From: Actinomycetota bacterium
GTDB lineage: Bacteria; Actinomycetota; Thermoleophilia; RBG-16-64-13
DNA: 64,000 nt
Assembly: GCA_018830645.1 (NCBI GenBank)
Contig: JAHJSA010000023.1
Location: 7,482-71,481, forward strand
Reading direction: 5' to 3'
Shown piece by piece: positions 35,640 through 61,169 of this stretch. The position numbers and the translations under genes are program-made. Each line of letters begins with the position of its first letter. Position 1 is the stretch's first letter. The notes under the pieces were generated by a model that ran no database searches, was not told the DNA's origin, and worked only from the letters and a program-made list of their open reading frames with translations.

Positions 35640-35644
35640 ATGCC

Positions 35645-40833: not shown

Positions 40834-40873
40834 GTGCACGCACCTGTCGGCGCGTCTCCCCGAGGGGCGCGGG

Positions 40874-43203: not shown

Positions 43204-43269
43204 CTCGAACCCCCTCCTCGCGGCATTATGATGAGATCGCACCGGCGCGCCGGCCGCGCATCATGTTGA

Positions 43270-43833: not shown

Positions 43834-44499
43834 GTGGAACTCGGCCTCGATCAGGACACCAGAGTTCCCCGTCGCGGCCGGCAGCGTCTTCCACGCGTAC
43901 CCTCCCGCAGTCCCGCGAGCTCCTTGCCCCCGACGGCGCGCAAGATCCTCATCGCCGCCAAGCACCTGCTCACGACCCGGGGCCTAAGCGCCCTCACCCT
44001 AGAGACCGTGACCAACAGAGCAGGCGTCAACAAGGCTCTGGTGCGCTACTACTTCGGGAGCAAAGCTGGATTGATCGAAGCCGTGGTCGACGAGATCGTT
44101 CTGGACGAGTGCGCGTCCATGGCGAACGACCTCTCAGCCAACACGACCGTGGCCGAACGCGTGCGGAGTTTCGTGGCGAGTGTCCGCCGAATGGCTACGA
44201 ACGTCGACGGCTACCGGGCCTTCTTCGACGTACTCCCTCACGGCGCCCGCGATCGCGGCCTCCGCCGAAGGCTCACGTACCTCTACGACCTCTGGTACGA
44301 GTGGAACCTGGAGTGGCTCGGCCTCGACGACGCGACCGCGGATGACGAACGCGCCGCTGGATTGCGGGCGATGGGCGCCTTCACCGCCGCCGTCATCGAC
44401 GGTATCGCCGTGCAGGCCTTGATCCACGGCGCCGAGTACGACGTCGAGCCGACGCTCGACATCCTGGAGCGCTGCCTGCTCCGCATGCTGGAGGAGTAG
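43834..44499 (+). CDS. TetR/AcrR family transcriptional regulator
   Basis: HTH region KILIAAKHLLTTRGLSALTLETVTNRAGVNKALVRYYFGSKAGL; divergent from the methylamine island. Confidence 0.75.
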   Translation: MELGLDQDTRVPRRGRQRLPRVPSRSPASSLPPTARKILIAAKHLLTTRGLSALTLETVTNRAGVNKALVRYYFGSKAGLIEAVVDEIVLDECASMANDLSANTTVAERVRSFVASVRRMATNVDGYRAFFDVLPHGARDRGLRRRLTYLYDLWYEWNLEWLGLDDATADDERAAGLRAMGAFTAAVIDGIAVQALIHGAEYDVEPTLDILERCLLRMLEE

Positions 44500-44602: not shown

Positions 44603-46063
44603 CTACTCCTCCGCCGAGACGATGATCTTCTTCATCGCCTCGTGGACCGCGGGATCGAGCGGCATCGCCTCGTGGGTCTTCAGCAGATCGGCGGCCATAG
44701 CCTCGGCACGCGTCGCCACGTCGGTCCCACCTTTCTTCGTCCATGCTCCCCGCGTACGCCTGTCGAAGAGCTTCACCTTCGACTGCTCCGAGGGCATGTA
44801 CTTCAGCGTGTGCTTCTCCTTCAGGAAGTTCTTGCCCGAACCGATCTTGTGGATCACCTCGGTGCCGATGGTGTCGTTGTCCACGGGTGAACCGCGCACC
44901 ACGCGCTTGACCATCGAGGCGATCTCGTTGTCGATCAGGAGCTGTCCGTAGGAGAACGTGACACCCAGTTCGAGCATCCCCATACCGTATATCAGGTTGG
45001 ACCCTGCCAACGCTGGTAGCAGACTGGTGATGGTTTTCTCGTGCCCGGCCTGAGCGTCGATCACTTTGCTATCCGCCTAACCACCGGCAACGTAGCTCGG
45101 CAGATTGTAGTAGTTGGACAGTTCGGCCACCGCCGCGGAGATCATGCCCAGCTCTGGCGCCCCTACGGGGGCCGTGGCGTAGGTCATGTCGAACATGGTG
45201 GTGGAGCTTCCGTACATGGCGGGAGCGCCCTTGCTGGTGAGCTGCGCCAGCGTGAGGCCGGCCAGCACCTCTGCGTTGTGGGTGACCAGCGTGCCCGATA
45301 CCGACACCGGGCTCGATGCGCCCGACATGGCCATGCTGAGCACGTTGATGGGGCATCCCCAGCGCGCGCTCTCCATGATGACCTCGCAGGTCACCGTGTG
45401 GAGCATCAGGGGGCTGGTGGGGCACACCAGGGTGGAGACCAGCGGCCTCTCCCGGAGCTCCCTGTCGCCGCCCGCGATGAGCGCGGCCATCTCGAACATC
45501 TTGCGGGCGTTGGCACCCGAAGAGACGTCGATGTGATGCACGTGCTTACTCGTGTTCAGGAACGCGGCTTCGAGCATGTGCAGGTCGTATGAGGCGTCGG
45601 GCATGTCGCGAGCGACGACGGCCGTCGAGTACACGTCGACGTTCTCCATCGCGTCGCAGGCGAGCGCCGTCCTTCCCATGTCTTCCTTTGTGGTCTCGTT
45701 CACTTCGCCCGTCTCGGGATCGGTGACCATGATCCCGCAGCCGAAGTTGGTGTAGCCCACGTGCTTGCCGCCCATCCAGTAGTCGTACCTGGGATCGCGC
45801 GCCGCGAGCAGGATGCTGCTCGGGCACGACGCCAGGGCTTCCTCGACCACGTAGGCCGGGAACTTCACGATCTTGGTGGCACGATCGACGATGCAGCCGC
45901 CCTCTTCGAGAACGTCCACTGCTTCCTCGAGATGAACCTCGACCCCGGTCAGCCGGAGGACTTCCAGCGTGGCGTCGTGGATGGCGTCGAGCTGACTGCT
46001 CGAGTACATCCTGAGACCCCAGCCTTGGTATTCCTCCGTACTGGCTCTCGGTCCTCGGATCAT
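44603..46063 (-). CDS. mttB: Trimethylamine:corrinoid methyltransferase MttB (second copy), pyrrolysine-containing (in-frame UAG at 45077..45079)
   Basis: Track ORFs 45077..46165 and 44603..45064 are in frame across one TAG: ...[54 protein letters not shown]; paralogous to the 34158..35639 copy. Confidence 0.9.
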
Positions 46064-46106
46064 GTGCGCACCTCCTTTCTCTCGCTCGTAGTGACAGGCC
46101 GTCTCA

Positions 46107-46772
46107 CTAGGAGACGGCTTCCTTGGCCTTCGCCACCGTCTCGGTGGCGCTCTCGGCGTAGACATCCGCGCCGATCTTGTCGGCCCAGTGCTGGGTGGCG
46201 GCGGCGCCGCCCACCATCGTCTTCACATTCCCCCTGATGCCCGCCTCGGTGAGGGCCGCCTCCAACTTGGCCTGATTCACCATGGTGGTGGTCATGAGGG
46301 CCGAGCTACCCACCAGATCGGCGTTGGTCTCCTGCGCCATGCGGACGAATTCGCCGATGGCCACGTCGCGGCCAAGGTCATGCACCTCGAACCCGGACAC
46401 GCCGAGAAGCGTGCCCACGATCGTCTTTCCGATGTCGTGCACGTCACCTTCGATCGTGCCGATGACCACCGTGCCGAGCTTCTCGACCGCCGATGCTTCG
46501 GGCAGGGCCTCTTCCAGTATTGCAAGCGCGGCCGTCATGCAGTCCGCGGCGATGATCATCTCGGGAAGGCTCATCTCTTCCGCCTCGAACATCTCCCCGG
46601 CCCGGCGCATGCCCACCGTGAACCCTTCCTGCAGGAGCCGGACTGGATCTAGACCGCTCTCCAACGCATCCTTGGCCAGCTGTACCGCACCGTCCTCATC
46701 GATGTCGAGGACGAGCTCCTGCGCCTTCTGGATGGCTTCCTCCATGCTAAGTGTCGCCATGTACCGGTTCAC
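46107..46772 (-). CDS. mttC: Corrinoid (cobalamin-binding) protein, MttC-like
   Basis: B12-binding domain with DxHxxG (GDVHDIGK) and SxL / GG motifs; N-terminal corrinoid cap helix; immediately upstream of mttB. Confidence 0.85.
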   Translation of the reverse strand: MNRYMATLSMEEAIQKAQELVLDIDEDGAVQLAKDALESGLDPVRLLQEGFTVGMRRAGEMFEAEEMSLPEMIIAADCMTAALAILEEALPEASAVEKLGTVVIGTIEGDVHDIGKTIVGTLLGVSGFEVHDLGRDVAIGEFVRMAQETNADLVGSSALMTTTMVNQAKLEAALTEAGIRGNVKTMVGGAAATQHWADKIGADVYAESATETVAKAKEAVS

Positions 46773-46874
46773 CTCCTCTCATCCGTCTTCGTCACTGTCT
46801 TCCCTCGATCACTCCTCGCGCCGAACAACAGAGTTCGACCCCACGGAGCACGTCAACCGCCCGTTGCGCGCACG

Positions 46875-46991
46875 TCAGAGCTTCTTGACGAACGTACGAG
46901 CTTGATAGAGCGCCAGAGCCGGCAGAGTCACGAACAGGATGATCGCAACCGCCGGACCCGCTCCGAAAGCCCAGAACTCACTCACGTTCAC
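46875..46991 (-). CDS. Small hydrophobic peptide (38 aa, single predicted TM)
   Basis: GTG start 6 nt after a GGAGGTGG RBS that directly follows the upstream gene's TAA; translation (V/M)NVSEFWAFGAGPAVAIILFVTLPALALYQARTFVKKL; below the length cutoff of the ORF track. Confidence 0.4.
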   Translation of the reverse strand: MNVSEFWAFGAGPAVAIILFVTLPALALYQARTFVKKL

Positions 46992-47005
46992 GTAAGACCA
47001 CCTCC

Positions 47006-47284
47006 TTAGACCAGGAGCCCAGTATCGCTCATGCGCTGACGGCCGAACTCGGTAAGGCTGTACTTGAGCAGTATCTTCTCCTTCCCGAAGCTCTTGCTCG
47101 GATCAATGGTCTCCTCGATGGCATCGATGAGCCCCCCCGAGTAGAGGTCCGCAAGGGTGACCCGGTTGTTGCCGTACCAGTACTCGCCCTCGAGACCGCC
47201 GTACTCGGCGTTCAGTAACTCAGCGAGTTCGTAGTCCCACTTGGCTCCCTCGGTCTGCAGGATCTGCAGCAGGCGCCCTTTCAT
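47006..47284 (-). CDS. Hypothetical small soluble protein (~92 aa)
   Basis: ORF from the internal ATG (MKGRLLQILQTEGAKWDYELAELL...); no recognisable motif; lies between the membrane protein gene and the small peptide. Confidence 0.4.
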   Translation of the reverse strand: MKGRLLQILQTEGAKWDYELAELLNAEYGGLEGEYWYGNNRVTLADLYSGGLIDAIEETIDPSKSFGKEKILLKYSLTEFGRQRMSDTGLLV

Positions 47285-47315
47285 GTGTAGCTTCGCCACG
47301 TATCCCCCTCTCAGC

Positions 47316-48395
47316 TTAGCTGCCCGCAGTGTCCGAGTTCTCCGATGAGCCCCCAAGATGCGAGACCGATCGGATGACCTCAAGAACATCGCGGCGCTCG
47401 GTGTACATGATCACTCCACCGGCGATGACGATCAGGCCGCCGATCAGGAAGTTCAGGTCAGGCATGGTCAAGGTGAAGATGCCCAGGAAGATTATGGCGA
47501 ACACCCCGTAGAAATCGGCGATCGCCTGCCCGCGACCCACACCGATGAGCGGGAACGACTTATACCACGATACGTAGCAGAAGCCGAATGTCAGCCCGGC
47601 CAACAGCAACCACACGAGGTTCGTGAAGTGAAGCGCATCGACGAGCATCGTGATCGCATCGCCGCCGGTGAGGATCGCCGTGACCGGCAAGATGAGAACT
47701 ACCCAATAGAGAACCTCGGCCGTGAAGCGGATCGTGAGCCCCACGTCTGGGTCTACTACATCGAGCGCCCGACCGGCGAACGCGCCTTCGATACCCCAGC
47801 CCGTCGCAGCCATGATCCCGCCCACGTAGCCGAGCCACGAGCCGGTGCCCGTACCGGTCATCTCAGCGAGGATCCCCGGTGCGTAGACGACCAGACCTCC
47901 GCCAACGATCACCAGGATGCCGAGTGCCGCCCGGGTGGTTATCTTCTCTGCATACCAGACCCGGGCCAAGCCGGCGCCCACAATCGGATAGAGCAGGGCG
48001 GCAACAGCCGCGAAGACACCGCCAACGTAGCCGATGGCAAGAAAGCTACCGAAGATCGCCATGGGACCGCCGAAGACCGCTCCTGCGAAGAACCACTTCG
48101 AGACCTTGCGCATCTGCCGAATAGTCCTACCGTATTCCCGCATCTTGCCCAACACCGCAACCCAGACGTACATCGCGAGCAGCACAGCGATGGCGTTGAG
48201 CGCGGTGATAACCGCTGCCGCCATCAGGAAGTCCCTGGTTGTATCGGCGATGGCGTTGAACGGCGCTTCGTACCAGATCGCGGTGCCGGGCACGTACCAG
48301 GCACCCCACAGCACAGCGCACCACAGCGCCCACACGAACCCCCACCGCACCGACCGCTCGGTGTGATCCCTTCGTGCCTTCGTCAGATCCGACAT
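47316..48395 (-). CDS. Integral membrane protein (~10 TM), putative permease, possibly a methylamine permease analogue
   Basis: 359 aa, highly hydrophobic with repeated Gly-rich TM segments; inserted between pylC and the mttC-mttB pair; family not assignable from sequence alone. Confidence 0.55.
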   Translation of the reverse strand: MSDLTKARRDHTERSVRWGFVWALWCAVLWGAWYVPGTAIWYEAPFNAIADTTRDFLMAAAVITALNAIAVLLAMYVWVAVLGKMREYGRTIRQMRKVSKWFFAGAVFGGPMAIFGSFLAIGYVGGVFAAVAALLYPIVGAGLARVWYAEKITTRAALGILVIVGGGLVVYAPGILAEMTGTGTGSWLGYVGGIMAATGWGIEGAFAGRALDVVDPDVGLTIRFTAEVLYWVVLILPVTAILTGGDAITMLVDALHFTNLVWLLLAGLTFGFCYVSWYKSFPLIGVGRGQAIADFYGVFAIIFLGIFTLTMPDLNFLIGGLIVIAGGVIMYTERRDVLEVIRSVSHLGGSSENSDTAGS

Positions 48396-48412
48396 CTATC
48401 GACCCCCTTTCG

Positions 48413-48434
48413 TGCGATGCCTAGCAGCATCGCA
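48413..48434 (-). terminator. Perfect 8-bp GC-rich hairpin (TGCGATGC-n6-GCATCGCA) ~18 nt upstream of the membrane-protein start and downstream of pylC
   Basis: Inverted repeat read directly; no U-tract, so a terminator or RNA-stability/attenuator role cannot be distinguished. Confidence 0.3.
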
Positions 48435-48716
48435 GCCTCTAGAAACCCACCGACTCCAGATCCTCAGTGCCGATCCCCCCTCTCTTCGAGCCTCGGTGTA
48501 CTTGTATGGACAGGTACGCGAGAATGTCCGCGCCCCGGACGACCGCCTCATGATACCTGGACGCACCAACAATACGCAACAGACTCGCACCCATCCTGAA
48601 AGCCGCAGTGACCCCTGTCTCGTGCCTAGACAGGCTTGAGACACCACGGCCGCGACCCCCTGAGCAATCCGCTCGTGTGGGTGGCGCACCGAGCGCGGCA
48701 ACAGCCCGGGGGTGGG

Positions 48717-49904
48717 TCAACGAGCACCTCCCCCTATCGACCCAGTCCGTACGCTCACCGGGTCAGGCGTCGCCGACAACCCGGAGTCGCGCGCGAGCCG
48801 GCGAACGGCCTCCTCCGCGCGGGCACGTGCGTCTACCGCGTCGACGCCTACGCAGATCATGGTGGCCGACCAGGTCTCTCGCCCCTCGGCACGGTCCGTG
48901 AGCACCTCGTCCGCGCCGAAGGCGTCTTCCAGGAGCCGCAGCGGCCCCGCCGTGCTCATCACGTGTTCCCCGAGAACCTCCAGGCTGCCCATGGAGGCGT
49001 GCACGTGTTGGTAGCAGACTCCACGACCGCCCGGGGGCAGTGAGCCGGGGAGACCGGCGCCACGTGCGATATCCGCGACCAACGCCACCACATTGAGTCC
49101 CGTGGAGTGCAGTACCGCGGTGGGCGTCTGGCTGGGTAGCCGCGCGTCGATCTCGATCAGCCGCGGAACGTCGCCGTCCAACATGACCTCGACGTCCATG
49201 AGACCCACGAGCCCCATGCGTTCGGCAAGACGCACCCCGGCAGCGGACATGGCCTCGAGAGACCCTCCGGCCGCGGTCACCGGAGCGACCACGCGCTTGC
49301 AGTCGTACACGTGGTCGAACTCGAGCAACGTGGGCACCAGAGGCAGCGCCCCATCCGGCGTCCCGATCACCTCCAACGACAGCGAAGGCCCGTCGACGTA
49401 CTGCTGCACGACGACTTCATGACCCGCGGTCTCGAGCCTCTCTCGAGCCGCTTCGAGGTCGCTCTCGGTCCAGACGACGCTCACCCCCTCGCTGCCGCTC
49501 GACCCGCTCGGCTTGACCACCGCGGGGAAGCCGCACTCGGGCCACGGTAGGGGCCGCGGAACATCCAGTTCGGCGAAGAGACGGTCGGAACGAAGCTTCG
49601 AGCAGGAGAGCTCGTAGGAAGGAAGGTGGAAGGCCAGAGGTACACCCCAGGACGGCACGACTTCGCTCAGCCACCGCAGGGTCTTCAGGTCTTCGCAGGC
49701 GGGCAGGATCACGTCGCACGCTCCGAGCACCACCCGCGCTCGTTTCACGTCGGCCGTGACGTCGAACACGTGGCTCTCTGTTGCCAATCCCGAGGCGGGC
49801 GTGGCGGGCGCCCTATCGACGAGGACAACCTCGAATCCAGCCTTGATGCCCAAATAGACCGCCTCGGTCCCTTGTAGACGTCCTCCCACGACGCCCAGGC
49901 GCAT
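48717..49904 (-). CDS. pylC: Pyrrolysine biosynthesis ATP-grasp ligase PylC (3-methylornithine--L-lysine ligase)
   Basis: Start VVGGRLQGTEAVYLGIKAGFEVVLVDR... and the IEIDARLPSQTPT motif match PylC; ATG overlaps the pylB TGA. Confidence 0.9.
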   Translation of the reverse strand: MRLGVVGGRLQGTEAVYLGIKAGFEVVLVDRAPATPASGLATESHVFDVTADVKRARVVLGACDVILPACEDLKTLRWLSEVVPSWGVPLAFHLPSYELSCSKLRSDRLFAELDVPRPLPWPECGFPAVVKPSGSSGSEGVSVVWTESDLEAARERLETAGHEVVVQQYVDGPSLSLEVIGTPDGALPLVPTLLEFDHVYDCKRVVAPVTAAGGSLEAMSAAGVRLAERMGLVGLMDVEVMLDGDVPRLIEIDARLPSQTPTAVLHSTGLNVVALVADIARGAGLPGSLPPGGRGVCYQHVHASMGSLEVLGEHVMSTAGPLRLLEDAFGADEVLTDRAEGRETWSATMICVGVDAVDARARAEEAVRRLARDSGLSATPDPVSVRTGSIGGGAR

Positions 49905-51001
49905 CACCACTGGGCCTGCGCCCTCAACCCCGGAGCCTGCGTCCCGGCGAGCCAGCCTTCGTACTCCGGCAAGGAGGCCACCTTCAACCCGAGGGGAGCG
50001 AGATGCCGCTCCACTCCGGCCACGGTACGGAAGCCCTCATCGATGTCGAGCGTTGACTGTGAGACTCCGGCCAGCCCGCTTGCGGGAGGGATGATGGATG
50101 TGACGACGTTGGCGCCCGCACGCAGGCGGGCCTCCAGACCCCGAAGGCCGTCGATGTCGAGAGAGGCTGGGATCAGGCGATCGGGCATGGTGAGCCGCAT
50201 GGTGGCTAAGGTGACCATCTCGGCCAGCAGGGTGGGCGTGTCGAGGCCGCCCATAGGAGTGCCCTTCTGGGGGACGAAGCCCATCACCCGCACCTGCTGC
50301 ACACCCTGCGCCCTCATGGTGACGAGGGAGCGCGCCCGGTCGGCGGCCGTCTCGCCCACACCCAGAAGGATGCCGTCTTCAGCGTGTAGTCCAGCGCCCA
50401 GGGCCCGGCTCCTCGCGCCGACACGCGCCGCGAAATCCTGCCCCGGCCGAAGCTTGCGGAACAACTGCGGTGAGTGGGTCTCCTGGTAGCAGGCATACCA
50501 GTCGGCCCCCGCCTCGGCGAGCTGCCGCAGCACGGCATCCGGCACCACGCCCGGAGACACCATCACCGGCACCCCTGCCGCTCCTCGGACGTCCGCCACG
50601 AGTTCCACCAGATGGTCGAACCGGCCGGCGTCGTGGATCTCCGGGTCCTCCCCCAGGGTCAGATCCACGAGGTGCACGCCCGAGCCGGCCAAGCCGCAGG
50701 CTATCTCGACCACCTCAGCCGCGGTCTTGCGGTACCGGGGACTCGCGTCGTTGCCCTTGCGGTAGAAGCAGAACGTACAGCGATTGCGGCAATACGTCGA
50801 GAAGTAGACGAAACCGTATAGAAAGATCTTGCGCCCGAAGTAGCGCTCCCTCAGTCTCTGCGCGGTGTCGAAGATGAGAGCGGCCTCATCCGGCTCCTGC
50901 ACTTCGAGCAGCGTCTCGATCTCGGGCACCCGGAGGCGTTCCCCCGCGAGCGCGCGCTCGACGATCGCTTCCACTTCCCGGCGTCGTGGCCGTCCGGTCA
51001 C
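49904..51001 (-). CDS. pylB: Pyrrolysine biosynthesis radical SAM enzyme PylB (3-methylornithine synthase)
   Basis: FVYFSTYCRNRCTFCFY radical SAM cluster motif; RLIPASLDIDGL...AGANVVTSIIPP matches PylB; GTG start at 51001 (residue 179 of the track ORF) preceded by a G-rich RBS. Confidence 0.9.
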   Translation of the reverse strand: MTGRPRRREVEAIVERALAGERLRVPEIETLLEVQEPDEAALIFDTAQRLRERYFGRKIFLYGFVYFSTYCRNRCTFCFYRKGNDASPRYRKTAAEVVEIACGLAGSGVHLVDLTLGEDPEIHDAGRFDHLVELVADVRGAAGVPVMVSPGVVPDAVLRQLAEAGADWYACYQETHSPQLFRKLRPGQDFAARVGARSRALGAGLHAEDGILLGVGETAADRARSLVTMRAQGVQQVRVMGFVPQKGTPMGGLDTPTLLAEMVTLATMRLTMPDRLIPASLDIDGLRGLEARLRAGANVVTSIIPPASGLAGVSQSTLDIDEGFRTVAGVERHLAPLGLKVASLPEYEGWLAGTQAPGLRAQAQW

Positions 51002-51012
51002 CTGCGAACCCC

Positions 51013-51900
51013 CTATTCCTCCGCGACCGGATGCGATCCCGGCCGGGTGCCTTGTACGTTGAGGCGCGCCCCGTCGAGGTACACGAGACTCCTCCCTACC
51101 GGGTGGATACGAGACCCACCCGTCTGCATCATGGCTAGACGCTCGAGGCCGAACCCCCACCCGGCCCACGGACCGTTGACGCCCCACTGCTCGTCGAGTG
51201 GGTGCGGTCCGACGACGCCTGAGGCCACCTCGATGCCGCGCACCTCCACATCGAACGTCGCGCCATATACGCCGGAATCGGTCTCGACGATCTTGTATTG
51301 CAGGCCCAGGGGCCTCATGGCGACATCGGCCAGCATCCGCAGGCGATCGGCGGGGTCGCCGCTCGGCTCGAACTCCACAAGGTTGAGCATGGTGAACTCC
51401 GAGAGGTGGTTCGAGCCCTTCGACTCCTTGCGGAAACAGGGTCCCACTTCGAAGATGCTCACGGGGGGCGGCCATAGCCGTTGGAGGTGACTGAGCAGGT
51501 AGTAGAGGTTCGGTGCCAGCATCGGGCGCAGGCATCGGTCGGTGTCGACCCAGTACACCTGGCGCCAGAGCGGGTGTACTTCACCGATCCCCATCTTCGC
51601 CAGGGCGCCCTTGCTCATCATGAGCGGCGTGGCCACCTCGACGAAACCATCCGCCACCAGCGCCGCGACCAAGACCGACTCCACCGTGCGCAGCACCGGG
51701 CGTCGCCTCTCGGTGCGCAGAGAGTCGAGCCGATCGACGTTCGCCTGGCTGAGTTCCCGATGGTTCCCCTCGTAGCGGGCGTCGCGCTCCTCAGCCGAGT
51801 CGAACGTGTCGGCCAGCGCGGCATCGTCAAGCCCGATCTCGGCTAAGCGCTGCCTCTGCTGCGGCGAGAATCCGAGTGCGATGTCTCCCTGGCCTATCAC
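51013..51900 (-). CDS. pylS: Pyrrolysyl-tRNA synthetase, C-terminal catalytic subunit (PylSc)
   Basis: Class II aaRS motifs conserved with PylS: CLRPMLAPNLY, FEVGPCFRKES, EFTMLNL, GPHPLDEQWG, GFGLERL; GTG start overlaps the pylSn TGA (GTGA). Confidence 0.9.
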   Translation of the reverse strand: MIGQGDIALGFSPQQRQRLAEIGLDDAALADTFDSAEERDARYEGNHRELSQANVDRLDSLRTERRRPVLRTVESVLVAALVADGFVEVATPLMMSKGALAKMGIGEVHPLWRQVYWVDTDRCLRPMLAPNLYYLLSHLQRLWPPPVSIFEVGPCFRKESKGSNHLSEFTMLNLVEFEPSGDPADRLRMLADVAMRPLGLQYKIVETDSGVYGATFDVEVRGIEVASGVVGPHPLDEQWGVNGPWAGWGFGLERLAMMQTGGSRIHPVGRSLVYLDGARLNVQGTRPGSHPVAEE

Positions 51901-52262
51901 ACGAACGAGGTGCTCTCGAACTTCTCGAGCTTCCAGGATGGTATACGGCACCGCGGACACGGCTCGTCGTAGATCTTGTTGCGCAGATGACGGGCGACCC
52001 GACTGTTCCGGGAGTTCCGCATGCGGATGTCATGCCCGCAGTGCGTCTGCAACTCCACGAACCCGCCCCTGAGCTTCACCGAACGGACGCCATGCAACAG
52101 GCCGGTCTTCGACGGCCACAGCTTCACCTTCTCGATCACCCCGTAGGGGGCGGCATGCCGCCGCACCGTGCGCTTCTTCGCGCCGGGGATAGGAGCCAAG
52201 ACCCAGTCGGGCAGCTTCCCGCCTGTCCCAACGTCTCCGTTCGTGGAGCCGACCACGTCCAC
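51897..52262 (-). CDS. pylSn: Pyrrolysyl-tRNA synthetase N-terminal tRNA-binding domain protein (PylSn)
   Basis: 121 aa; LQTHCGHDIRMRNSRNSRVARHLRNKIYDEPCPRCRI closely parallels the Zn-binding region of the Methanosarcina PylS N-terminal domain; GTG start 45 nt downstream of pylT. Confidence 0.85.
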   Translation of the reverse strand: MDVVGSTNGDVGTGGKLPDWVLAPIPGAKKRTVRRHAAPYGVIEKVKLWPSKTGLLHGVRSVKLRGGFVELQTHCGHDIRMRNSRNSRVARHLRNKIYDEPCPRCRIPSWKLEKFESTSFV

Positions 52263-52307
52263 CTACCGCCCGCCCTTCCTCTCACCACTCTCTTCTGCAT
52301 GATGGTG

Positions 52308-52379
52308 TGGAGGAGAGTCCGGGAGTCCAACCCGGCTACGAAGATTTAGAGTCTCCGCGGTCATGCCGACCAACCCTCC
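52308..52379 (-). tRNA. pylT: tRNA-Pyl (CUA anticodon) gene pylT
   Basis: Minus-strand 72-nt sequence GGAGGGTTGGTCGGCATGACCGCGGAGACTCTAAATCTTCGTAGCCGGGTTGGACTCCCGGACTCTCCTCCA folds with a 7-bp acceptor stem, single U8, a 4-bp D stem with 5-nt D loop, a 6-bp anticodon stem, loop CU-CUA-AA, a 3-nt variable loop and a 5-bp T stem. These are the hallmark atypical features of tRNA-Pyl. Confidence 0.85.
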
Positions 52380-52457
52380 TTGTTGCCGGCCGCCGGGCGG
52401 CCGGCTCGGGGTGCACCGCCCGTCTGTGGGGCGGTGCACCACTACTCGTAGGCGGTC

Positions 52458-53486
52458 TTAGACCGCCGCCTCTTCCGCGGCCTCCACCATGGCCCTCAGG
52501 TTCTCGGTCTCCGCCGAAGGCGGCACCGAGCAGCCGGGAGCGATCATGTCGTAGCCATCGGCCAGAGCCTTACGCACGTCGTTCTTCACGTCCTCGGGCG
52601 TGCCGGAGAAGAGCGTCACCACCGCGTCCACACCGCCGATCAGGGCGATGTGCCGGGGGAACCCGCGCAGCACCTCTTTGGCGGCGACGGCATCCACCGA
52701 CGGCTCCACGCTGATCGCGGTCACACCGGTCTCGGCGACCTCCGCCATGATCGGGTTGAGCTTCCCGCAGATGTGCATGATCGTGAGAACGCCGGGGAGG
52801 TTGGCGATCTGCTTCGCCTCATACGGCTGAGCGAGGTTGCGGAAGATGGGCGGGCTGATCACGTCGATCGAGGCCATCATGTCTTCGATGACGATGATGT
52901 CCGCACCCGCGTCCACAAGGGCTTTGCCCAGCATGGTGCCGGCCTGCTCGGCCACTTCCATGAGGGGCACCAGGCTCTCCGGCTTCTTGAAACTCGCCTT
53001 GAGTGCGTCGGTGATGCCGATCAGATTGGCCACGATCGAGAAGGGGCCGACGATGTTGCCCATCACCGCGACATCGTCGCCAACGGCTTCCTTCATCAGC
53101 CGCACGGCCTCGATCAATTCAGGCACGCGTCCGCGGGTGAGGAAGTCGTCGGGAAGAGCGATCTCGTCCCCGGCGTGGAAGGCGTGCACGTCGATACGCG
53201 GGATACCCTCGCGCCCGGCGTACTTGACGGTGCAGCCCAGAGCCTCGCTCTCGACGGTCTGGCAGTACGGGGCACGCACAGCGTCGAAGCCGAGTACGGA
53301 GTGGGCCGCCAGAGCCAGTTTGGCCATCGACTCGGCCTTCTGGTGGGCCTCCGGCCATTCCGCTCCACACGCGTCCATCTGCGCATAGGTCGCCGTCTGG
53401 TTGGCCGAGAAGACCGGTGGACGGTCCACGGGCAAACCGGCAAGCGCTGCTAGTACACGTTCCTTCGAAGTCATCACACCTCTCAC
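52458..53486 (-). CDS. Uroporphyrinogen decarboxylase (URO-D) family methylcorrinoid methyltransferase (MtbA/MtaA/MtqA-like)
   Basis: 342 aa URO-D fold typical of the methylcobamide:CoM / methylcorrinoid:tetrahydrofolate methyltransferases that partner with corrinoid proteins; lies between pylT and mtbB. Confidence 0.8.
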   Translation of the reverse strand: MRGVMTSKERVLAALAGLPVDRPPVFSANQTATYAQMDACGAEWPEAHQKAESMAKLALAAHSVLGFDAVRAPYCQTVESEALGCTVKYAGREGIPRIDVHAFHAGDEIALPDDFLTRGRVPELIEAVRLMKEAVGDDVAVMGNIVGPFSIVANLIGITDALKASFKKPESLVPLMEVAEQAGTMLGKALVDAGADIIVIEDMMASIDVISPPIFRNLAQPYEAKQIANLPGVLTIMHICGKLNPIMAEVAETGVTAISVEPSVDAVAAKEVLRGFPRHIALIGGVDAVVTLFSGTPEDVKNDVRKALADGYDMIAPGCSVPPSAETENLRAMVEAAEEAAV

Positions 53487-54887
53487 CTATCCCATCTTCG
53501 CTTTCAGTCTGTCCACACTGTTGATACTGATACCGAGCAATTCTGCGATACGGATCTTAGCCTCTATCCCCTTGGCGCATCCGGGCACTGAGGTGATCAC
53601 ACCTATGTCGAGGTCTTCGCGCATCTCCCGCATCACCGTGACCTCGGAGAGGTCGGCGACGCTGATCTTCAGCTTGTCGGCCACGTAGGCTTTGGCTTCC
53701 GGTAGGCGCATCCTGCGCGCGAGCTGCATCCGAGCGACCAGGTCTCCGGCCGTACGGATGCCGCCCATACCAGCGGCCACCCCGTGGGCGATGGGCATCC
53801 CGTAGGGATCGCCCACACCCACCTATAATCCGTCGACGCGGGCGATCTCGACCATCGCGACCGAGGCCCGCGAGACACTGTCGATAGGCGGGGTCTCGAA
53901 CACCGGGGAGCCACCCACCCCCATGCCCATGTTCACGTGCACCGGGATGTTGGCCACCGCGGTGACCGCCTTGACGAAGGTGACGGCGCGGGCAAGGTTC
54001 CAGGCCATCGACTTGCTGGTGTTGGTGTTCACGACAGGTCCGAAGATGTCGCCTCCGGCCTTCTCGACGAGACCAACTTGGTGGTGCGGGTAGAGCCCGG
54101 CGAGACGCGTGCCGTCGTACTCGAGCTCGCCGTGGATACCGAGTACGAACTCCCCGGCCATGCCAACCTGGATCGCAAGATTCGGGTGTTTGGCCTTCAG
54201 CTGCTCGACTGCCTGAAGCGAGGCTTTGAAGTCCGCGTCGCCCGCCGCGCCCGTCGTATCGAAGTTCACGCCGTCGGCGCCCACCTCGGCCAGCTTGCCG
54301 CAGATGTAGACGATGTCGCGGGTCGCGTGCTCGACCGCCAGTTCCTGGGCCTCACGCGCCTCCTTGATCTTGCCCATCGGCAGGAGGTCGGAGGGGTTGC
54401 CGAACGGGCCGTCGGGCGCGTAGTAGGTGCCGAGGTTCGGCATGGCTCCGTAGAAGATGGGCACGATGGTGCTGAGCAGGATGTTCTCGAGCGCCTGCTG
54501 CTCCTGGGCGATGATCGGCTTGACCGGCTTCCAGGAGTAGTCCACATGCCCGAGTTCCATGGTATCGGCCGCGAAGGCCCGCTCGTGCACCTGCACGCCC
54601 TGCAACCGGCTCAGCGGGATACCGACCCCGCTGTTGCCTTGGTCGCCGTCGAGGCGCAACGTGCCGATGTCGTGCGTGAGTACGACCTCGTTCCCCGAGT
54701 CGACGCCCACTACGCGCGCATTGCTCTTGAAGAGGTCGAGCAGGAAGTCGATCTCGTCGTCTTTGAGGGGTGGGATGCGGCCGCGATCGGCTGCGTCTGC
54801 GGAGCCGGCGATCAGATCGGCCTTCAGCTCGTCAGCCGTCATATCGATCACGTGCCCGTCCCCCATCCGGGTCGGGTACTTCGTCAT
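53487..54887 (-). CDS. mtbB: Dimethylamine:corrinoid methyltransferase MtbB (second copy), pyrrolysine-containing (in-frame UAG at 53823..53825)
   Basis: Track ORFs 53823..54887 and 53487..53822 abut in frame across TAG: ...[33 protein letters not shown]; N-terminus [24 protein letters not shown] is MtbB-like. Confidence 0.9.
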
Positions 54888-54942
54888 GCGAGCACTCTCC
54901 TCATTCGTCTAGCGACCACTCATTCGTCTGGCGACCACTCCG

Positions 54943-55590
54943 CTACCCCTGCACCAACTCGAGGGCCTTCTGCACGGCCTCCTGGGCGTTCTCGGCGTAG
55001 GCGTCGGCGCCGATCTTGTCGGCCCAATACTGAGTGACGACCGCCCCGCCCACCATGGTCTTCACCTGGTCGCGGATGCCCGCCTCCTTCAGCATCTTCT
55101 CCAAGGCCTTCTGCCCGACCATCGTCGTGGTCATGAGGGCCGAGGTACCCACGATCGCGGCCCCCGTCTCCTTGACCTTCTCGACGAACGTGTCCAGGGG
55201 GACGTCGCGGCCGAGGTCCACCACATCGAAGCCGTACACCCGCATCAGGGTCGCCACGATGCCTTTGCCGATGTCGTGCACGTCGCCCTCGATCGTGCCG
55301 ATGACGGCCGTGCCGGCCTTCTTCTCTCTCTGATCCTCGGGAAGCGACGCCTCTAGAATAGCGACGGCCGCAACCATGGCCTCAGAAGCAAGGATCACCT
55401 CCGGCAGGAACATGGTGCCCCGTTCGAAGAGGTCGCCCACGTCGCGCATGCCCGGAGTGAATCCCTCGTTGATCACCTTGAGGGGGTCGAGGCCCAGCTT
55501 CACCGCCTCAGTCGCAATCGCCTTCGCCTCGTCCTCATCGGCCGACACCACAGCCTTGGCTGCGGCTTCGAGCAATTCTTGTTCTGTCAT
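54943..55590 (-). CDS. mtbC: Corrinoid (cobalamin-binding) protein, MtbC-like
   Basis: B12-binding domain with GDVHDIGK (DxHxxG) and the corrinoid cap; upstream of mtbB. Confidence 0.85.
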   Translation of the reverse strand: MTEQELLEAAAKAVVSADEDEAKAIATEAVKLGLDPLKVINEGFTPGMRDVGDLFERGTMFLPEVILASEAMVAAVAILEASLPEDQREKKAGTAVIGTIEGDVHDIGKGIVATLMRVYGFDVVDLGRDVPLDTFVEKVKETGAAIVGTSALMTTTMVGQKALEKMLKEAGIRDQVKTMVGGAVVTQYWADKIGADAYAENAQEAVQKALELVQG

Positions 55591-55759
55591 CTCGCCCTCC
55601 CGCTTGTAGTCGTGGGGCTCGATGGCCCCCCAGAAGCACCTCTATGGAGACCGCTGCCCAAGAGAGACCGCTCTCCACTACGAAAGCACACTACCCACAT
55701 CGACCGGTCGAGACACCGCGGCGACAGTGTCTCGACCGGGTTGAACACAGCGCCAGACG

Positions 55760-57370
55760 TTAGAGCCAGAAGATGGCGTAGGCGGTGAATACCACCGCCA
55801 CACCTGCAGCCAGAGTCACATAGGGCAACACTCCGGCCTTGCGGGGACCGAGTTCAGTCTCGCCCGCGGGCAACAGGTCCGCCCACATGTGGTCGGGGAA
55901 CTTGCCCTTGTCGGTGATGTAGTGCCTCACGGCGAACACTGGGATGACGAGAGCGGCAGATACGAAGCCCGTGGCCAGTGTCCCGGGACCCCACACGTTG
56001 GCCCCCGCGCCCAGAAGGAACGCGTTCACGAACGCCAGTACTACACCTGCGCCCAAGAGGAAGTTGGGGGCGCGCCACGGCCGAGGTACGTGCTTGTTGT
56101 CGATGCGGTGGATCCACCCGGCGTTCAGGTTGAGGAAGTTGAAGATCAAGTAGTTCACGTTCGACACGGCAAGCACGAACAAGTAGTCCGACATCAGCAG
56201 GAGGATCAGGTTGAACGTGAGGTCGGTCCACATGGCGCGGGTGGGCGCCCCGTGAGGGTTCACGTGATCCAGGTACTTGGGCAGCCATCCGTCGACGCCA
56301 CCCTGGTAGAGGGTGCGCGAAGAACCGGCCATCGAGGTCATCACGGCCAGCAGGAGGGTGAACACGAGCATGACCACCAGGACGTTGGTGACGACAGCGC
56401 CGCCGCCGACCATACCGGCCAGGGCTTCGCCGACGCCCGCTCCGCTGGCGATACCCGGTTCGAGCATGCCCTCTGTTCCCAAGACGCCCTGGAAGGCCAC
56501 CGGCACCACGACGTACACGGCGATGCACAGGAGGCCGGAGTAGAGGATGGCGCGAGGGGTATCGCGGCCCGGGTTCTTGAACTCACTTGTGTAGCAGATG
56601 GCGGTCTCGAACGCGTAGGCCGACCAGGCCGCGATGAACAGACCGCCCATGAAGAGCGTCCACCCACCCAGATCCCACGAACCCGCGATGACGTTGCCGG
56701 CATCATCCAAGGCGAGCGGGGTGAACGGCGAGAAGTTGCTGAGTGAGACATCGCCGGTGAGCAACGGCACGACGCTCACGACGAGCAGCGGCATGAGCGC
56801 ACCCACGGCAAGTACTGTCTGGATCCGGGCGGTGCGCAGGATGCCGTGGTGCTGCATGGCGAACACCGCGAGGAGCATGGCTGCACCGATGAAGAAGGTG
56901 GCGTTCACACGGATCGACAGGTCATCCTTGAGGAAGTCGAGCGGTATCAGCGTCACCTGCCACGTGTTGATCGCGGCGTCAGGCGCAAAGAAGATCGAAA
57001 GAAGGTAGCCCGCGCCGAGACCGCAGCCGATGGCCAGCACCGGGGTCCAGGCGAGCCAGTTGCACCAGAGCGAGACCGGCGCCAAGAGCTTGCTGTAGCG
57101 CACCCAGGCCGTGGCGCCATACACAGAAGCCCCTCCCGACTTGCTGGGGAAGAGGCCGGCGATCTCGGCGTAGGTGAACGCTTGGATGAAGCCGAACAGA
57201 ACGGAGATGGTCCACACGAGCCAGGCCGGCGCCCCCACGGTCGCCGAGATGCCCCCCATGGAGAAGAGCACCAGCGCGGGCACGCCGATCGCGACCCAGA
57301 AGGCCCCCTTCCAGTCGATATCGCGCTTCAGAACACCGGCCTCGTGCGACACGTACGTTTCCGATGACAT
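55760..57370 (-). CDS. APC-superfamily permease (amino acid/polyamine/organocation), candidate methylamine transporter
   Basis: 536 aa, ~12 TM, APC-type Gly-rich helices; located between the mtbC and mtmB genes. Confidence 0.75.
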   Translation of the reverse strand: MSSETYVSHEAGVLKRDIDWKGAFWVAIGVPALVLFSMGGISATVGAPAWLVWTISVLFGFIQAFTYAEIAGLFPSKSGGASVYGATAWVRYSKLLAPVSLWCNWLAWTPVLAIGCGLGAGYLLSIFFAPDAAINTWQVTLIPLDFLKDDLSIRVNATFFIGAAMLLAVFAMQHHGILRTARIQTVLAVGALMPLLVVSVVPLLTGDVSLSNFSPFTPLALDDAGNVIAGSWDLGGWTLFMGGLFIAAWSAYAFETAICYTSEFKNPGRDTPRAILYSGLLCIAVYVVVPVAFQGVLGTEGMLEPGIASGAGVGEALAGMVGGGAVVTNVLVVMLVFTLLLAVMTSMAGSSRTLYQGGVDGWLPKYLDHVNPHGAPTRAMWTDLTFNLILLLMSDYLFVLAVSNVNYLIFNFLNLNAGWIHRIDNKHVPRPWRAPNFLLGAGVVLAFVNAFLLGAGANVWGPGTLATGFVSAALVIPVFAVRHYITDKGKFPDHMWADLLPAGETELGPRKAGVLPYVTLAAGVAVVFTAYAIFWL

Positions 57371-57453
57371 CTATCCCCCCAATCTAGGTCTGACGGGTGT
57401 GGATCCGGGGTGGGGCGGCGCACGCCGCCCCACCCCGGATCCCCGGGCGTCTT

Positions 57454-58878
57454 CTACCAGTGCTTGTAGTTGACGCCGAGATCCTGCATCGCTTTCACGG
57501 CTTCGTCGTACACGGCCAAATACTCGGCGGTGGGAACGACCTTGATCGGGTCGTAGCACTCGTCGAACGGCTGACCCGCCGGCGCCGTCTTGTAGTCTTT
57601 CTCGTAGCTGCCCACCAGAGCGTCGAGGATACGGTTGGCCTCTTCGAGCGGCATCCCGGCCACCGCGTGGGCGACCTCGCCCATGAAGCGGGCCTCGAGC
57701 CCCGTGGTCTTGTTCGTGGCCACGCCTTTGGCCGAGGCAACTCCGGAGAGTATCTCGCGACCGCTGACGGTGTCGGTGATGGACTGAGCCGCAGTCTCGA
57801 GCAGGCACATCTTCGTGCCGGGCCCCGCGACTGTGTAGTACTGGTTGCCCAACATCAGGTTCGTGTGCTCCTCGATGGCCCGTGCGCAGTGCCCGGCTAC
57901 CGCCAGCGGCTCCCTGGCCGTGGTGATGCCCCACCGCACGTGGATGGGCCCGTCGAGATGCCACGTCGCCTGCGTCATCACGAACGCGTTCAACGTGGTG
58001 GCCACGTCGACGATGGTGGTCTCTTCGAGTCCACCCGCGTACCCTCCGAAGATGGGCATCTGCTCGCACATGATGATGTTCCCGGCTAGTACGTAATGAG
58101 CGGTGAAGGTCAACGCACCTACGTCGATCTTCAGCTCATTGAGCTGGGACACTTCATGGCTGTCAGACTGCCGCATCCCCCCGGGGAAGTCGGCTGCGAT
58201 GACTCCACCGGGAGACAGGGACGTCTCATTGCCCTATAACCCCATCCCGGGCCTGCCGGCCCTTGCCTGAGCCAGGCGGACCTGGTAGGCCTCTTGCCTC
58301 ACGGCAGCAATCTCCCACGGGCTGTTCGGTGTGGGGTCGTAGCCGTTGATCGTCTGCATCACCCCGTCCACGATGGTGTCTACGATGCTTTCCTTCGCGT
58401 AGGATTCGTGGATCGGCAGGAAGAGCGGCTCGGAGCATGGAGCCCCGGTAGGCCCTCCTTGGATCACCGGCGGCCTGGTGTCCTTGTGACTGCGAGGGCT
58501 CAGGAGCCGCGAATCACGCCCCTCCCCCAGCACGCAGGACTTGGGCGCCGCTGCAATACTGGCCCACACCTCTTCTTCCGTGTACTTGATCACGCGCCCG
58601 GTATCCATGCAGTAGATACCGCACTCCACCAGCATCTCCATGCCGGCTTTGAAGAGGTTGGCTACCAGTGCGGGGTCCGTGGGGACCATGACCTTCTTGT
58701 CCATCTGGATGCCGTGCTTCTCTTTCAAACGCGAGGCCGTCTTGGGGATGATCTCGTAGTCCCACGCGTTCTCATCCACACGCTGGCCGGTCTTCGCACG
58801 GTTGAAGGCTTCGAAGACGGTGACCTTCTGCGCTAGCGCCACGTTGGCTTCCCCCCTTTCTCTCGATCGGATGTGCAT
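57454..58878 (-). CDS. mtmB: Monomethylamine:corrinoid methyltransferase MtmB, pyrrolysine-containing (in-frame UAG at 58234..58236)
   Basis: Track ORFs 58234..58878 and 57454..58176 are in frame across TAG: ...ARAGRPGMGL-TAG-GNETSLSPGGVIAADFPGGMRQSDSHEVSQLNELKID, colinear with the MtmB Pyl-202 region (AGRPGMGV-O-GPETSLS...TDSHEVSQLNELKID); ~474 aa. Confidence 0.9.
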
Positions 58879-58891
58879 TGAGTCGGCCGGT

Positions 58892-59542
58892 TCATCCGCT
58901 GACCAGTTCGATGGCCACCTTCACTGCGTCCGCGGCATTGTCGGCGTAGCCGTCGGCGCCTATCTTGTCCACCCACTCTTGGGAGACGGGGGCACCGCCG
59001 AACAGGCACTTGACGTTGTCGCGGATGCCGATCTCGATGAGGCCGTTCACGATCTCGCGCTGGGCGGGCATCGTGGTGGTCATCAAGGCCGAGCCCGTGA
59101 CGATATCGACGTTCTCCGCCTTGGCCTTCGCCACGACGTCGTCTACGGGGACATCGCGGCCCATGTCGATGACTTCGAAGCCGTTGGCGGCGAACATCGT
59201 CTTCACGATGTTCTTCCCGACGTCATGGATATCGCCCTGCACCGTGTGGCAGATCACCTTGCCTCGGCTCATGGCGCCCCGCTCGTCGGCGGTCATCCCC
59301 TCCGTCAGAATTTCCACAGCCCCTTGAAAGGCTTCCGCCGCGATAATGATCTGCGGAACGAACATCTCGCCCTCATCGAACAGGTCGCTGATGATGTTCA
59401 TGCCCTTCGAGAGTCCCTCCTGGATAGCATCCACAACCGTGATCCCGGCCGCCTTCGCCTCGTGCGCCGCCTCTGCGGCCACCTCGGGCTCGAGTTCCGA
59501 TACCCCCGAGGCCAGTTTCGCTAGGATCTCTTCTCGATTCAC
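58892..59542 (-). CDS. mtmC: Corrinoid (cobalamin-binding) protein, MtmC-like
   Basis: B12-binding domain with GDIHDVGK; first gene of the mtmCB-type unit. Confidence 0.85.
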   Translation of the reverse strand: MNREEILAKLASGVSELEPEVAAEAAHEAKAAGITVVDAIQEGLSKGMNIISDLFDEGEMFVPQIIIAAEAFQGAVEILTEGMTADERGAMSRGKVICHTVQGDIHDVGKNIVKTMFAANGFEVIDMGRDVPVDDVVAKAKAENVDIVTGSALMTTTMPAQREIVNGLIEIGIRDNVKCLFGGAPVSQEWVDKIGADGYADNAADAVKVAIELVSG

Positions 59543-60139
59543 CTACTCACCCCCTCGCTCCTAGGTCCGTTTGCCGAATACACGTTGCCGGCGACACATG
59601 ATCACTGCCGTGCACCCGACCCCGTATAGGGAGATCCCTGTCGCCGCAGGCCGACTACTGCATGCTGCGTCTCCCCCAACACACGCCCGGCGGGCCCTCT
59701 GCCACAACCCATCTAGACAGGTGCGCGCCGGGCCAAGCAGAGCTACTTTACGTACCGCGAAAGCATATGTCAAACCCCTCTGGACGAGTTCGACTGTACG
59801 GTCATACAGGGCTGGAGGCCGCCCAGACCTCGGTGCCATCCTCGCGAAGCCCCCGTCTAGACCGCTTGACAGGAATCCGCGTAGTGACTAATGTTGCGAG
59901 CGTTGAGTTGAAACCGCCGGGGGGCGGATGAGGGCGGACGCTCAGGGGGGCTCCGAAGAAGGATTCCGGCAGGGCCTGCGTATGCTCGGGGTCAAGCGGG
60001 AGCACTTCAGACCTCTCGACCGACCTCCCGTGGCAGCCAGGAGCGTGCAACTCCGGAAAGGGGGCCGACTTCGTACACCCGCGTCTCACGCGTGTACCGC
60101 TAGAACCAATACCGTAGCCACATCGAGAAAGGGGGGAAC
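59543..60139. promoter_or_regulatory. ~600-bp lower-GC divergent intergenic region between the mtmC operon start and the small-membrane-protein operon
   Basis: Longest non-coding stretch in the window and lower GC than the flanks; no ORF with coding character; must carry promoters for both divergent units. Confidence 0.4.
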
Positions 60140-60499: not shown

Positions 60500-60660
60500 T
60501 GACCGTGGCTAAACACGAAGAGTGGATACCGTACAAAGACTACAAGGAACCGAAACAGAGCATCTTCATGCAGGTCTTCGACGTATTGTTCATACTGGTC
60601 CTCTGCTACATCTTCTTGCTCGTTCCGATCATGCTCACTGGAAAGGTCTTGGTGGGCTAG
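60498..60660 (+). CDS. Small membrane protein (53 aa, 1 TM)
   Basis: MTVAKHEEWIPYKDYKEPKQSIFMQVFDVLFILVLCYIFLLVPIMLTG; overlapping start/stop with the upstream ORF. Confidence 0.4.
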
Positions 60661-60662
60661 TC

Positions 60663-61165: not shown

Positions 61166-61169
61166 GGCC

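Follow-up and report, generated by a model that had tools for sequence, protein, structure and literature searches.

The closest described counterparts of the locus reported here are the methylamine gene set of Methanosarcina (mtmCB, mtbCB, mttCB, permeases, mtbA, ramA and pylTSBCD) and the pyrrolysine (Pyl) cassettes of bacteria, such as pylTScBCDSn of Desulfitobacterium hafniense and the Acetohalobium arabaticum-type pylSnScBCD with mttBC and mtmB. Bacterial pyl genes usually follow one of two arrangements, and pylSn-pylSc-pylB-pylC(-pylD) is among them (PMC3941956). Two Actinobacteria have been counted among the bacteria encoding pyrrolysyl-tRNA synthetase, PylRS (PMC9630628), and Actinobacteriota metagenome-assembled genomes (MAGs) expressing Pyl-encoding mttB and mtbB were described from Stordalen Mire (PMC10805028). 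The second methyltransferase of bacterial trimethylamine systems is uncharacterised (Kivenson et al., PMC8318568). The present analysis concerns a block of methylamine and pyl genes at positions 44603–59542 of a 64,000-nucleotide stretch (the window) of contig JAHJSA010000023.1, from an Actinomycetota bacterium (assembly GCA_018830645.1). The window corresponds to bases 7482–71481 of the 218-kb metagenome contig k141_60652 (ENA ERZ27247117). With considerable confidence, the block is interpreted as a vertically inherited Pyl-dependent cluster of a high-GC, soil-type actinobacterium related to Thermoleophilia, for demethylation of mono-, di- and trimethylamine, from which pylD has been deleted.

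The block shares with the Methanosarcina system three Pyl-type methyltransferases with cognate corrinoid proteins, a permease gene following mtmCB, pyl genes adjoining the methyltransferase genes, and a second methyltransferase (MT2) of the MtaA/MtbA family with its HxC...C positions. It differs in its host, a bacterium of the Actinomycetota without methanogenesis that often uses TAG as an ordinary stop codon, in a PylRS made of two separate proteins, PylSn and PylSc, and in the lack of pylD and ramA from the cluster. Common to the bacterial pyl cassettes and the window are the split pylSn/pylSc, the linkage of the cassette to methylamine methyltransferases, and TAG stop codons that are not depleted, implying conditional expression. 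Unlike these cassettes, the window has pylD deleted with a remnant left, carries the full set of genes for all three methylamines with two mtbB and at least two Pyl-type mttB genes, and encodes an MT2 that resembles archaeal MtaA/MtbA and not the pterin-binding MtgA/MetH-like enzymes.

The Stordalen Mire Actinobacteriota belong to the same phylum and have the same gene families. Two of the loci compared here, L009 (fen_672) and L031 (palsa_647), hold pylBCD-pylT, and their names appear to match that site; in their layout pylSc lies on the opposite strand and pylD is present, whereas the window has MT2-pylT-pylSn-pylSc-pylB-pylC. The latter arrangement, continued by transporter-mttC-mttB, is found with 65–88% protein identity in locus L086 (GCA_054640715.1, a Thermoleophilia sister cluster), which differs in keeping pylD, in having an SSF symporter in place of the EamA transporter of the window, and in carrying cobW, RamA, a CobT-like gene and MoxR after mttB (L086 11521–17145). 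Pyl-encoding mttB and mtbB in Actinobacteriota have already been published. The features of this locus worth following up are that pylD has been lost across the genus and that an MtaA-type MT2 is conserved beside pylT.

Genes were identified with Pfam, with NCBIfam (TIGR, NF and PRK models with their cutoffs), with ARAGORN for tRNA and with the Rfam PYLIS models. The block and its regulator comprise the following features:

58892–59542, minus strand: mtmC, monomethylamine cognate corrinoid protein (PF02310 and PF02607; TIGR02370, 237 bits against a cutoff of 215; DxHxxG motif present as GDIHDVGK)
57454–58842, minus strand: mtmB, monomethylamine methyltransferase (PF05369, 719 bits, full length across the TAG at 58234–58236)
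55760–57370, minus strand: APC permease, probable importer of methylated amines (PF13520, 248 bits; NF053774 trimethylamine N-oxide permease equivalog, 873 bits against a cutoff of 690)
54943–55590, minus strand: mtbC, dimethylamine cognate corrinoid protein (TIGR02370, 259 bits; PF02310/PF02607)
53487–54887, minus strand: mtbB, dimethylamine methyltransferase (TIGR02368 equivalog, 665 bits against a cutoff of 369; internal TAG 53823–53825, stop TAG 53487–53489)
52458–53474, minus strand: MtaA/MtbA-family (URO-D fold) methylcobamide:acceptor methyltransferase, candidate MT2 (PF01208, 244 bits; TIGR01463, 287 bits)
52308–52379, minus strand: pylT, tRNA-Pyl with anticodon CUA (ARAGORN)
51897–52256, minus strand: pylSn, tRNA-binding subunit of PylRS (TIGR03912, 101.5 bits against a cutoff of 51)
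51013–51900, minus strand: pylSc, catalytic subunit of PylRS (TIGR02367, 284 bits against a cutoff of 178)
49904–51001, minus strand: pylB, methylornithine synthase, radical SAM (TIGR03910, 440 bits against a cutoff of 348, full length)
48717–49904, minus strand: pylC, 3-methylornithine–lysine ligase (TIGR03909, 312 bits against a cutoff of 248, full length)
48623–48677, minus strand: remnant of the pylD 3' end (in-frame match to the pylD 3' end of L086)
47316–48395, minus strand: EamA/DMT-superfamily transporter (PF00892; best PDB match the LicB choline transporter 7B0K, E 9e-6)
47006–47299, minus strand: 97-amino-acid protein, function unknown (gene call; no Pfam or NCBIfam match)
46875–46991, minus strand: doubtful open reading frame (ORF) of 38 amino acids (gene call)
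46107–46760, minus strand: mttC, trimethylamine cognate corrinoid protein (TIGR02370, 236 bits against a cutoff of 215)
44603–46063, minus strand: mttB, trimethylamine methyltransferase (TIGR02369 equivalog, 710 bits against a cutoff of 525; TAG 45077–45079)
43834–44499, plus strand: TetR/BetI-like regulator, convergent with mttB (PF00440 and a weak BetI match)

Every credible gene between 44603 and 59542 lies on the minus strand, and the gene junctions range from -4 to 169 nucleotides, with the exception of the 321 nucleotides separating pylC from the EamA gene; pylSn and pylSc overlap by 4 nucleotides (GTGA). All three corrinoid proteins, MtmC, MtbC and MttC, carry the motif GD[VI]HD[IV]GK and score above the TIGR02370 cutoff. 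Homologous tRNA-Pyl genes were found in ten related loci. The sequence itself establishes which gene families are present, that the UAG codons lie at canonical positions, that the corrinoid proteins have the DxHxxG motif, that PylRS is split and that PylB and PylC are intact. The original prediction, made from the letters alone, had listed these genes from mtmC to mttB in this order on the minus strand, with short or overlapping junctions, a TetR gene on one side and the function of methylamine methyltransferases joined to a pyl cassette; the gene list is borne out, at the coordinates given, by the Pfam, NCBIfam, ARAGORN and Rfam results, and MtmB, MtbB and MttB match their curated family models over the full length and above the cutoffs.

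The prediction that the methyltransferases contain Pyl is supported by matches to the Rfam models PYLIS_1 at 58137–58236 (mtmB), PYLIS_2 at 53726–53825 (mtbB) and PYLIS_3 at 44980–45079 (mttB), each placed exactly at the in-frame TAG. Five Pyl-type genes are present in the window (mtmB, mtbB, mttB and the additional mtbB2 and mttB2 described below), all intact and with TAG at the canonical site. In the congeneric locus L004, the in-frame TAGs of mtmB, mtbB and mttB are conserved at the identical codons.

TAG also terminates 21 of the 52 genes of the window, including rpsA, polA, the glutamine synthetase gene and carB, with read-through extensions of 0–122 codons; TAG stops are not avoided in this Pyl-decoding organism. 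For Acetohalobium, conditional UAG suppression is summarised in PMC3941956; with TAG a frequent ordinary stop here, suppression probably has to be conditional. The embedding of the pyl genes inside methylamine operons near TetR and AsnC regulators, as read from gene order, fits such conditional suppression and would restrict it to periods of methylamine use. An enrichment of TAG stops in the block was considered and rejected (8 of 17 methylamine and pyl genes against 13 of 35 others, Fisher p = 0.56). The stop TAG of mtbB is followed 12 nucleotides on, in frame, by the start of the MtaA-like gene (53474–53489), and read-through would give a fusion of MtbB and MT2 with 342 extra codons. The two genes share a frame in the window and L004, and lie in different frames in L007. 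The fusion was rejected as a designed feature: it is a single observation by shared descent, expected one time in three by accident, and the frame differs in L007.

The principal peculiarity of the cluster is the lack of pylD. This gene directly follows pylC in nine related actinobacterial loci, seven from the genome scan (L005, L007, L008, L009, L010, L014 and L031) and two on Thermoleophilia contigs (L086 and L089). Searches with tblastn and a PylD hidden Markov model (HMM) did not recover it from the window, L001, L084, 13 kb of flanking contig or L004; altogether, 74 kb of the contig and 43 kb of the L004 genome were covered and contained no PylD-like sequence. Two sequencing runs gave independent assemblies (L093/L094) of a third species of the genus, about 88% identical to the window at the nucleotide level, which likewise passes from pylC to the transporter without pylD. 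The pylC-EamA junction is identical in L096, an independent assembly of the window organism, so the absence of pylD is not an assembly artefact.

A trace of the gene is retained at 48623–48677, where 39 of 55 nucleotides match the 3' end of L086 pylD, ungapped, in frame and at the expected position (HERIAQGVAAVVSQACLG versus HEPLALGVAAMVVQSCLG); the binomial p of about 5e-10 holds for this fixed register. The PylD HMM matches the same segment at profile positions 251–272. The remnant was found via a protein motif and then by manual in-frame comparison; a DNA-level blast of the spacer following pylC against pylD 3' ends found nothing at default sensitivity, and the alignment of this spacer between the window and L004 was uninformative. 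In L093 the motif VAKSCLGIW is retained at the position of the remnant, and in L004 even the remnant is gone. The slot between pylC and mttC is occupied by an SSF symporter in L086, L004 and L093 (92–94% identical) and by the EamA transporter in the window; the 97-amino-acid gene of the window is not present in L004, L005, L007 or L086. The simplest history suggested by these sequences would be that the ancestor of the genus lost pylD codons 1 to about 250 in a single deletion, followed in the window lineage by exchange of the SSF symporter for the EamA/DMT transporter and the 97-amino-acid gene. By parsimony, the window and L004 species split after the loss of pylD.

Selection on the remaining genes was estimated as the ratio of nonsynonymous to synonymous substitution rates (dN/dS, Nei-Gojobori method) between the window and L004. 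The values were 0.107 for pylSn, 0.212 for pylSc, 0.125 for pylB and 0.177 for pylC, and 0.016–0.115 for the methyltransferases, corrinoid proteins and permease, at dS of 0.2–0.7. The segments downstream of the in-frame TAG gave 0.044 in mtmB, 0.072 in mtbB and 0.157 in mttB, at dS of 0.13–0.43. Since these segments would be untranslated without suppression and are nevertheless conserved, UAG read-through has been under selection since the window and L004 split. These substitution patterns indicate that pyrrolysine decoding is still in use.

Judged from this gene content, the final oxidation and cyclisation step that forms pyrrolysine must depend on a gene or supply that is not part of the cluster. 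Most likely the genome has a pylD copy at another locus, and PylD would then act in trans. The alternative is that pyrrolysine is obtained independently of PylD, either through a non-homologous dehydrogenase or oxidase or by uptake of pyrrolysine or a precursor from neighbouring organisms. This is rather unlikely, despite a deletion that is genus-wide while pylB, pylC, pylS and the Pyl-dependent enzymes stay under selection, the negative search of the contig and L004, and a PylD-profile scan of JGI metagenome contigs in which none of the 65 loci came from the genus. Only a small part of each genome could be searched, and in other organisms pyl genes are split among loci (PMC3941956). The retention of pylB and pylC favours de novo synthesis over salvage, and the cluster holds no evident replacement enzyme. 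The profile search for PylD proteins was itself evidently incomplete, returning 85 clusters against at least 1200 matches for PylC, and is weak evidence of absence. Among its candidates, P0039, P0043, P0052 and P0009 all proved by genomic context to come from other organisms or samples; pylC lies upstream at the candidate loci where the upstream genes are intact (L086, L089 and L091), and L090 (P0052) is fragmented, with no recognisable pylC. Similarly doubtful is the far-reaching version in which the genus uses UAG-encoded Pyl in at least five methyltransferase genes after total loss of pylD, by means of a non-homologous enzyme or of external Pyl or precursor.

That the system is instead decaying, with pylD lost, Pyl synthesis ended, and both the methyltransferase genes with internal TAG and the rest of the pyl genes turning into pseudogenes, is very improbable. 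The pyl genes are all full length against their models, with dN/dS of 0.11–0.21, the post-TAG segments evolve at 0.04–0.16, the TAGs themselves are conserved and the five Pyl-type genes of the window are all intact; this outweighs the deletion of pylD in three species, the failure to find ramA nearby and the faster evolution of pylC and pylSc compared with the methyltransferases.

The preferred reading is an inherited cluster that has lost pylD and still decodes UAG. Relatives were obtained in a PylB-based scan with one genome per species. The nearest are Actinomycetota MAGs, with PylB identities of 92% for the congeneric L004 ("Actinomycetes bacterium LH_M24", about 86% identical to the window at the nucleotide level), 76% for L005 ("Thermoleophilia bacterium FR_37"), 74% for a Gaiellales MAG and 58–73% for the others. 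The UvrB ranking agrees with that of PylB, with 95% for the L004 contig and 83% for the L005 contig, and many of its matches are named Thermoleophilia. The proteins of the block diverge in step with UvrB, being 92–98% identical in L004 (UvrB 95%) and 76–83% in L005 (UvrB 83%).

Gene order gives the same picture. L004 is colinear with window 61048–48777 and 46779–43835 at 86–90% nucleotide identity, and the same L004 contig is also colinear with window 1052–22157; the distance from uvrB to the TetR gene is 32.4 kb in L004 and 31.5 kb in the window. The TetR gene (86% amino acid identity) is the last of the L004-colinear block, colinearity ending at window position 43835. The L005 cluster, a rearranged version comprising the second permease with small ORFs, mtmCB, MT2, pylT-Sn-Sc-B-C-D, a second mtmCB, a permease and mtbCB, lies about 19 kb from a GluS-polA-rpsA-coaE-SLT-uvrB block that is also found in the window in like orientation. 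The variable parts are the pylC-mttC slot and the stretch beyond TetR, while the block itself is conserved. In L005, two near-identical mtmCB copies (4664–6760 and 14008–16105) flank the pyl genes, and one of them seems frameshifted or split in tblastn.

The composition of the block is native. Its G+C content is 0.644 against 0.649 for the window (about 65%), the G+C content at third codon positions is 0.80–0.87 against 0.77–0.88 in core genes, and synonymous codon choice, scored against a model built from core genes, has a mean log-likelihood of -0.950 in the block and -0.942 in the core genes. No att-like direct repeats were found at the ends of the block and no mobility genes among the annotated ORFs; the sole tRNA gene is pylT, inside the block, and there is no tRNA insertion site at its edge. 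The cluster is therefore inherited and not recently acquired.

The original prediction had regarded the block as a discrete 15-kb island embedded in conserved core synteny. The distribution of Pyl systems is patchy, and beyond the Actinomycetota the best PylB matches of the scan, at about 50–55% identity, came from Bacillota MAGs, further bacterial phyla and archaea, which makes an ancient transfer of the cassette into the lineage plausible; such a transfer, long before the genus arose, is likely. A recent horizontal insertion is the least probable of the readings weighed here, and the break of L004 colinearity just past TetR, though in its favour, stands against core-like composition and codon usage, the missing flanking repeats and mobility genes, an equal uvrB distance in L004 and the same neighbourhood in L005, divergence in step with UvrB, and methylamine genes on either side of the proposed bounds. 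What stands of the original prediction, accordingly, is the functional identity, the absence of ramA from the window and the chromosomal location, with polA, rpsA, coaE, uvrB, leuS and carB confirmed on the same contig; the island framing does not hold, since neither composition nor codon usage deviates and L004 has the block at the same locus, the very outcome that the prediction had named as its refutation. The missing pylD had been overlooked.

The product of the gene directly upstream of pylT is the candidate for the MT2 function. It passes the models TIGR01463 (287 against 235) and PRK06252 (323 against 244), and its best PDB match is MtaA of M. mazei (4AY7, E 5e-75), with MHICG aligned to LHICG and APGC to APGC. 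The His-x-Cys...Cys positions of MtaA, which we take to be zinc ligands serving thiol activation, are thus kept. The gene occupies the same position upstream of pylT in the window, L004, L005, L007 and L086, that is, in every locus of this layout class whose region was read. Given the similarity to MtaA and the retained HxC and C-terminal Cys, a thiol acceptor is more likely than tetrahydrofolate, and by analogy with MtaA the acceptor is probably a small thiol molecule.

By analogy with Methanosarcina and with Desulfitobacterium and Acetohalobium, each methyltransferase (MtmB, MtbB or MttB) would bind its methylamine through Pyl and methylate the Co(I) of its own corrinoid protein; the MtaA-like enzyme would then demethylate the corrinoid and hand the methyl group to the small acceptor. 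RamA, the reductive activase, must be encoded elsewhere in the genome and would be supplied from there: tblastn with L086 RamA gave a best E of 0.012, corresponding to a ferredoxin motif (window, L001, L084, L004 and L097), and no homologue of RamA, CobW or a pterin-type methyltransferase was found in 74 kb of the contig, which extends the earlier remark that no RamA-type gene was visible in the window.

Several points weigh against the proposed pathway. Neither pylD nor ramA was found in the 74 kb of contig, so that a complete working pathway is a proposal. The MtaA-like protein falls below the equivalog cutoffs for MtbA (NF041608, 247 against 600) and MtaA (NF040654, 321 against 400) and is a candidate MT2; no methylcorrinoid:tetrahydrofolate methyltransferase is present among the Pfam-annotated ORFs. 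The dN/dS values come from one pairwise comparison, and the proposed co-transcription and regulation are read from the order of the genes.

Two structural elements lie within the block. Between the mtmB stop and the permease start, a hairpin (57392–57451, minus strand) has a perfect GC-rich stem of 19 bp, with a free energy of -56.8 kcal/mol, a z-score of -6.25 and no U-tract, and a hairpin of differing sequence occupies this position in L004. The structure may thus be a conserved element, for instance one that terminates or attenuates transcription or stabilises the transcript. The mtbC-mtbB spacer (54900–54937) contains a tandem 19-nucleotide repeat, CTCATTCGTCTAGCGACCA / CTCATTCGTCTGGCGACCA on the plus strand, which extends as far as the ribosome-binding region of mtbB.

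The genes for methylamine use are not confined to the 15 kb originally proposed. Further features on the two sides of the block are the following:

60140–62552, plus strand: four small membrane ORFs (119, 53, 104 and 63 amino acids; no family matches) and a second APC permease (PF00324/PF13520), divergent from mtmC
35645–36169, minus strand: AsnC regulator of the second cluster (Pfam)
34158–35687, minus strand: mttB2 (TAG 34647–34649; PYLIS_3 match 34550–34649; Pfam and frame analysis)
32752–34158, minus strand: mtbB2 (TAG 33097–33099; PYLIS_2 match 33000–33099; Pfam and frame analysis)
31215–32708, minus strand: non-Pyl MTTB-family gene (350 bits, below the TIGR02369 cutoff of 525)

On the mtmC side, the flank described in the original prediction as a lower-GC intergenic region is mostly coding: the spacer 59543–60139 has a G+C content of 0.631, and the stretch 60140–61169, at 0.572, encodes the four small membrane ORFs. 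The order of these ORFs and the second permease is conserved in L004 and L005, and together they may form an uptake system of several subunits that is linked to methylamine use. The transporter of this set (60140–62552) is ethanolamine-permease-like. About 0.3–3.4 kb beyond the window end (contig L001 2127–5253), a Pyl-split mttB (330 and 123 amino acids) and a non-Pyl MTTB of 495 amino acids lie beside a Usp gene and an ABC ATPase.

On the other side, the second cluster (31215–36169) has no corrinoid gene of its own; between it and the main block lie carB, a pyridine-nucleotide oxidoreductase gene and an aldehyde oxidoreductase (AOR)-type operon. The latter (39586–43563, beside TetR) consists of a ThiS-like gene and genes for ferredoxin, aldehyde:ferredoxin oxidoreductase (AFOR) and an FAD oxidoreductase. 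The AFOR gene that L004 carries at the same position (17914–19836) is only 31% identical to that of the window, and in the actinobacterial loci of the other layout (L008, L009, L014 and L031) AFOR genes immediately precede pylB. From these positions, a link of AFOR to one-carbon or aldehyde oxidation is conceivable.

Genes for a VWA protein, MoxR (AAA_5), a radical SAM protein, a 380-amino-acid protein of unknown function and an HdrB/HdrC-like fusion occupy window 25492–31119. The VWA-MoxR-radical-SAM block joins mttB directly in L007 (10402–14862) and lies 13 kb from mttB in the window (26.6–31.1 kb). This recurrent MoxR-type block near mttB, as seen also in L086, may have a part in loading or reactivating the corrinoid. 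Positions 18448–25495, which separate the core block from the methylamine genes, encode a glutamine synthetase and a split archaeal-type glutamate synthase (GATase_2, Fer4 with Glu_synthase, GXGXG and an extra Glu_synthase-like protein). The set is conserved in L004 and L005, and is consistent with assimilation of methylamine-derived ammonium or, possibly, with an N-methylglutamate-type route.

Overall, the locus is a large example of Pyl-dependent methylamine catabolism in high-GC Actinomycetota, with mtmB, two mtbB, at least two Pyl-type mttB genes and non-Pyl MTTB paralogues, and it is in line with the idea that methanogens face competition for methylamines from actinobacteria of soils and sediments. 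The MtaA-like gene beside pylT provides a concrete candidate for the uncharacterised second methyltransferase of bacterial methylamine systems. The deletion of pylD throughout a genus, together with ongoing selection, constitutes a natural experiment on whether pylD can act in trans or can be replaced; Pyl decoding without PylD, if true, would make this the first natural Pyl-decoding lineage lacking that enzyme.

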